DNA of 64,000 nt, from NCBI RefSeq assembly GCF_003334815.1, contig NZ_QOWO01000001.1; one strand, 5' to 3'. This stretch comes from Escherichia coli. GTDB lineage: Bacteria; Pseudomonadota; Gammaproteobacteria; Enterobacterales; Enterobacteriaceae. The translations under genes and the position numbers were made by a program. The notes under the pieces are model-generated. The model made no database searches and was not told the DNA's origin. It saw only the letters and a program-made list of their open reading frames with translations. Positions 39,901 through 40,053 of the stretch are shown piece by piece (positions within the stretch are counted from its first letter, which is position 1; every line of letters begins with the position of its first letter).

Positions 39901-40053
39901 GAGGGCTTCTCTCCAGTGAAAAATAGTGCGACTGCGTTGTTATGCATTGCACTGTACCAGTACACGAGTACAAAAGACAGAAAAAAAGCCCCGATGGTAA
40001 AAATCGGGGCTGTATATATTATTTTACAGATTGTGTTCGCTGTTCAGCGATGA

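Follow-up and report, generated by a model that had tools for sequence, protein, structure and literature searches.

The interval 39901-40053 of the window (the whole 64-kb stretch of E. coli DNA that was analyzed) is the exact intergenic spacer between two minus-strand open reading frames, mtr and deaD. The DNA from 39801 to 40200 is base-for-base identical to positions 3305718-3306117 of E. coli K-12 MG1655 (NC_000913.3), and the RefSeq annotation of this identical DNA confirms the identity of the downstream gene, which had been called mtr in a first-pass annotation that noticed repeated GTAC motifs upstream of it. A 553-bp query spanning the spacer matched 5426 of 5426 complete E. coli genomes, in which the genes on either side are annotated as mtr (tryptophan permease) and deaD. 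A 40-bp megablast query gave matches in only 3793 of the 5426, but its 28-base word fails at SNPs in the variable spacer, so that this lower count is uninformative on absence. The features considered below are as follows, in the direction of transcription:

40041..40058, minus strand: candidate TyrR weak (distal) box, CGTAATCATCGCTGAACA, tentatively placed by eye with 8 of 12 consensus bases
40056-40054, minus strand: deaD stop codon, TAA
40011..40028, minus strand: TyrR strong box, TGTAAAATAATATATACA on the mtr strand, a consensus match whose position fits PMC4374768
39981..40011, minus strand: deaD intrinsic terminator, a 9-bp stem (6 G-C pairs) and 7-nt loop followed by a T run, found by a terminator scan; stem and T run are conserved
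39974..39980, minus strand: putative weak -35 area, CTGTCT or TGTCTT, separated from the -10 hexamer by 17-18 bp and lying at the 42-bp distance from the TyrR strong-box centre
39954..39971, minus strand: predicted TrpR operator of mtr, GTACTCGTGTACTGGTAC on the mtr strand, identified by register alignment, matrix rank and conservation
39951..39959, minus strand: putative extended -10 element, TG-G-TACAGT, with its hexamer at 39956-39951, overlapping the operator by 3-6 bp
39914-39909, minus strand: GGAGAG before the mtr start, with the ATG at 39900
38656..39900, minus strand: mtr coding sequence (tryptophan:H+ symporter, 414 aa), the regulated gene, from the ORF list and the RefSeq annotation of identical DNA

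The deaD terminator occupies the region between the TyrR strong box and the mtr core promoter, with its hairpin at 40011-39987 and its T run at 39986-39981 on the minus strand. After the T run, the mtr strand reads, 5′ to 3′, CTGTCTTTT, GTACTCGTGTACTGGTAC (39971-39954), AGTGCAATGC and then the 5′ leader. An RNA-element reading of the region was rejected, as all that an Rfam scan of 39700-40300 yielded was terminator-driven noise below the threshold. It should also be noted that the mechanically called deaD ORF (40054-42009, minus strand) is 651 aa long from a TTG start, vs. 629 aa for the RefSeq K-12 DeaD CDS (3305971-3307860); the ORF list thus over-extends the DeaD N-terminus.

On the plus strand, positions 39952-39971 read ctgtaccagtacacgagtac. 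The GTAC tetramers start at 39954, 39960 and 39968, which bears out the first-pass description of three GTAC cores at 6- and 8-bp spacing, and the cluster lies 51-71 bp upstream of the 414-aa mtr ORF. RefSeq records carry no annotated feature at this site. No other GTAC triple within 25 bp occurs in the 64-kb window, which contains 208 GTAC sites in total; a looser triple (8372, 8379 and 8395) is found within the ORF 7051-8622. The most trivial explanation would be that three tetramers came together by chance and have no function. At the GTAC density of the window, about 0.2 such triples would be expected per 64 kb from random placement (about 5e-4 per given 153-bp spacer), and GTAC is over-represented throughout the window (208 vs. 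151 +/- 12 in dinucleotide-preserving shuffles, 0/100 of which reach 208). The clustering by itself is mildly unusual, not compelling; it is the position of the cluster, its match to known operators and its conservation that give it significance.

To compare the site with characterised operators, we took four other TrpR-controlled promoters from NC_000913.3, with the following operator 18-mers:

trp operator: GAACTAGTTAACTAGTAC
aroH operator: GTACTAGAGAACTAGTGC
trpR operator: GTACTCTTTAGCGAGTAC
aroL operator: GTACTAGTTTGATGGTAT

The mtr 18-mer aligns with all four, position for position and free of gaps. Its half-sites are GTACT at positions 1-5 and again at positions 9-13, with GTACC on the other strand at positions 18-14. 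A symmetrised log-odds matrix, built from the four non-mtr operators only, gave the mtr site the top score among the approximately 64,000 positions of the window (20.3-20.5 bits vs. 15.4 bits for the runner-up), and this score was reached in 0 of 200 shuffled windows. In leave-one-out scoring, the mtr operator ranked second of the five (22.1, 20.5, 19.0, 15.4 and 14.2 bits, respectively, for trp, mtr, trpR, aroH and aroL). The second-best matrix register was +8 for mtr, and also for trp and aroH. The runner-up in the window, ATACTATTTAAATATTAT at 6826-6843, lies in the divergent garP-garD spacer; it is AT-rich, lacks a GTAC core and is probably a composition effect.

Shorter descriptions of the operator were less useful. 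The mtr site has one mismatch to the minimal pattern GNACT-N8-AGTNC, and with one mismatch allowed this pattern matched 9 times in the window vs. 17 expected; it is non-discriminating alone, which is why the full-length matrix was used. The CTAG core found in each half of the consensus operator is absent at mtr (CTCG and CCAG). Since one or both of these cores are likewise missing from the natural trpR and aroL operators, CTAG is a consensus trait that is not needed for membership among TrpR operators. A GNACT-like half-site 8 bp from the first is present (GTACT at positions 1 and 9), in agreement with the description of the TrpR half-site as GNACT with an 8-bp spacing (PMC9413887).

The first-pass annotation had likened the cluster to a TrpR-type tandem half-site operator at the mtr promoter, and had named an alignment with characterised operators and an operator matrix scan as ways of checking this. 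Both support it, the mtr 18-mer being in register with the trp, aroH, trpR and aroL operators and ranking first in the window, and the TrpR literature points the same way. The tandem reading itself stands for the 8-bp GTACT pair, which is a tandem direct repeat. For the rest it needs refining: the outer two GTACs, 14 bp apart, are the inverted-repeat arms of the canonical 18-bp operator, and the 6-bp spacing is simply a by-product of the other two spacings (14 minus 8).

We then looked at the conservation of the site. A scan with the Mtr protein, limited to one genome per species, yielded 80 loci with 84-99% protein identity in Escherichia, Citrobacter, Salmonella, Klebsiella, Raoultella, Enterobacter, Kluyvera, Kosakonia, Cedecea, Atlantibacter, Shimwellia and other genera, from which 71 distinct 200-bp mtr upstream regions were aligned, that of the window among them. 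The sequence GTACT-NNN-GTACTGGTAC is kept in 71/71 of these regions, GTAC cores and spacing included. The variable part is confined to the three bases between the first two GTACT units, chiefly the middle one, at which each of the four bases is found. Averaged over the operator, identity to the E. coli base is 0.96, and 16 of the 18 positions reach at least 95% conservation. No other 18-bp window of the mtr-deaD spacer is as well conserved; the corresponding values are 0.47 for the 5′ leader (5′ UTR), 0.28 for 40040-40029 and 0.74 at the 3′ end of the deaD coding sequence. Between pairs of regions, identity over the spacer averages 0.62 with a minimum of 0.41, the latter arguing that the alignment is not an artefact of very recent common ancestry. 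The mtr operator is thus under strong purifying selection. In RegPrecise, mtr is assigned to the TrpR regulon in 17 genomes.

These data effectively refute a chance origin for the cluster. The cores and their spacing are invariant in 71 upstream regions that have otherwise diverged, vs. an identity of 0.47 in flanking non-coding DNA, and the site is also the top matrix match; we leave a functionless coincidence practically no credence. Conservation also bears on the mtr core promoter. The trinucleotide TGG before the putative -10 hexamer is invariant (71/71), and the hexamer itself is TACAGT or TACAAT in nearly all 71 species, the exceptions being TACATT in three and TACAGC in one. The -35 area is poorly conserved and matches the consensus poorly, as might be expected if the promoter depends on an activator. 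From the centre of this area to that of TGTAAAATAATATATACA is 42-43 bp, so that the promoter geometry we propose agrees with the published location of the strong TyrR box, whose centre is put 42 bp upstream of the mtr -35 element (PMC4374768). Transcription of mtr would then start near 39943-39945. Judging from conservation and from this published distance, the operator would fill the promoter spacer and overlap the extended -10 element. The mtr promoter was not called in a sigma-70 scan of a 600-bp stretch around the site. The one sigma-70-like site found in this stretch (vs. 0.5 expected by chance) was TGAACA-17-AATAAT at 40018-40046 on the minus strand, a site overlapping the TyrR boxes and oriented towards the deaD terminator and mtr.

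Part of the conservation, that of TGGTACAGT, could be explained by promoter function alone. It might therefore be argued that the conserved block is nothing but the mtr core promoter (extended -10 plus spacer), that the GTAC repetition is incidental and that there is no repressor site, all the more so as TGG-TACAGT at 39959-39951 does resemble a conserved extended -10 element. A promoter spacer is not usually constrained in sequence, yet here 11 of the 13 positions of 39960-39972 (TGTACTCNTGTAC) reach at least 95% conservation across the 71 species. Furthermore, the block is in register with four independent TrpR operators, and TrpR repression of mtr is reported in PMC5343134 and PMC12566513. 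A promoter without an operator is accordingly very improbable as an account of this block.

The best explanation is that the GTAC cluster is the operator at which tryptophan-bound TrpR represses the sigma-70 promoter of mtr, the gene of the tryptophan-specific permease, a reading that we hold with high confidence. TrpR is known to repress mtr, which carries one of five TrpR operators (PMC5343134), and the same repression is stated in PMC12566513, which cites Jeeves et al. 1999. In the mechanism we propose, one TrpR dimer would read the inverted pair GTACT...GGTAC (positions 1-5 and 14-18). A further half-site would be available in tandem register at the central GTACT, which begins 8 bp after the first; a second dimer can probably stack on it, extending over the -10 hexamer. 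When tryptophan is plentiful, holo-TrpR would be bound and, because the operator would fill the promoter spacer and overlap the extended -10, RNA polymerase would be excluded, leading to less tryptophan uptake. From its own boxes, which lie 40-90 bp further upstream, TyrR would activate the mtr promoter with phenylalanine or tyrosine. Both TrpR repression and TyrR activation of mtr are taken here as reported in the literature; the operator boundaries and the stoichiometry that we propose draw on secondary citations.

The number of dimers deserves comment. The 1999 work of Jeeves et al. is said to have found mainly 2:1 dimer:DNA complexes on the mtr operator in vitro, and binding of this kind would fit the invariance of the central GTACT. 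A further proposal, about which we are rather more doubtful than convinced, is that a second TrpR dimer, bound to a half-site only in the +8 register, is obligatory at mtr, and that the operator and the extended -10 form a fused, co-evolving unit in which TGGTAC serves both proteins. The argument for an obligatory second dimer is that the central GTACT is invariant in 71/71 regions and the preceding 3-bp spacer is free to vary. If the proposal were true, only the evolutionary argument would be new.

It was also conceivable that the cluster was a TyrR box, or a site for another regulator of aromatic amino acid metabolism, as mtr is regulated by TyrR as well (PMC4374768). The cluster, however, mismatches TGTAAA-N6-TTTACA, and was rejected as a TyrR box since it is absent even from the matches with up to two mismatches to this pattern (G-N14-C core). 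The sole match with at most one mismatch in the 64-kb window is the strong box at 40011-40028, further upstream, consistent with the location given in PMC4374768 (42 bp upstream of the -35 element). We therefore give this alternative next to no weight, and retain the TrpR operator as the identity of the cluster. TyrR activates mtr from such upstream boxes via the C-terminal domain of the RNA polymerase alpha subunit (alpha-CTD) (PMC4374768).

The GTAAA and ATACA of the strong box are conserved in most of the 71 species. The candidate weak box overlaps the deaD stop codon and lies 8 bp from the strong box if the boxes are counted as 22 bp, following the counting in PMC4374768. Outside Escherichia, the half of this weak box nearer the promoter is not conserved (mean identity 0.44), and the two-box TyrR arrangement described for E. 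coli may for this reason be lineage-specific; in RegPrecise, only 5 genomes have mtr listed under TyrR. The strong box and the deaD terminator hairpin share one base, the last of the former and the first of the latter, and the box, stem and T run are all conserved across the 71 Enterobacteriaceae. With the terminator wedged between the strong box and the core promoter, TyrR activates across an element that must also stop deaD read-through into mtr.

The TyrR boxes share the intergenic region and the promoter with the TrpR operator, but differ from it in sequence, in the protein bound, in position (40011-40028 and further upstream) and in outcome, which is activation and not repression. Among the TrpR operators, that of trpR (GTACTCTTTAGCGAGTAC) resembles mtr in its outer GTAC...GTAC pair 14 bp apart, in its left arm GTACTC and in the absence of CTAG cores; the difference is that it has no central GNACT half-site, and mtr has one. 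The trpEDCBA and aroH operators have the same 18-bp frame as mtr (GNACT in positions 1-5, NNACT in positions 9-13) and the same second-best register at +8; they overlap the core promoter, as is predicted for mtr. They differ in the central half-site, which is GTACT at mtr vs. TAACT and GAACT, respectively, at trp and aroH, so that mtr contains three full GTAC palindromes. They differ also in that mtr is without CTAG cores (CTCG and CCAG) and has GGTAC, not AGTAC, as its right arm.

What the GTAC motifs mark is the TrpR operator of mtr, which has been characterised before and studied since 1991; the finding is real but ordinary. Work on the K-12 operator (Heatwole & Somerville 1991; Sarsero, Wookey & Pittard 1991; Jeeves et al. 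1999) is cited in PMC4374768, PMC5343134 and PMC12566513. A full-text match of the operator string, in the mtrEMSA primer of PMC5554520, was set aside as irrelevant to TrpR, the mtr fragment serving there as a negative control for CfaD. E. coli K-12 has five classical TrpR operators, of which this is one, and the significance of the result beyond correct annotation is small; a real regulatory element was nonetheless recognised from raw sequence at a place where RefSeq carries no feature. The footprint shows which operator positions are constrained (GTACT-NNN-GTACTGGTAC) and may help a little in modelling the TrpR motif and in designing biosensors. Compared with the mtr operator of E. coli K-12, the site described here is the same DNA before the same gene, with no difference, and the footprint across 71 Enterobacteriaceae is the only addition.
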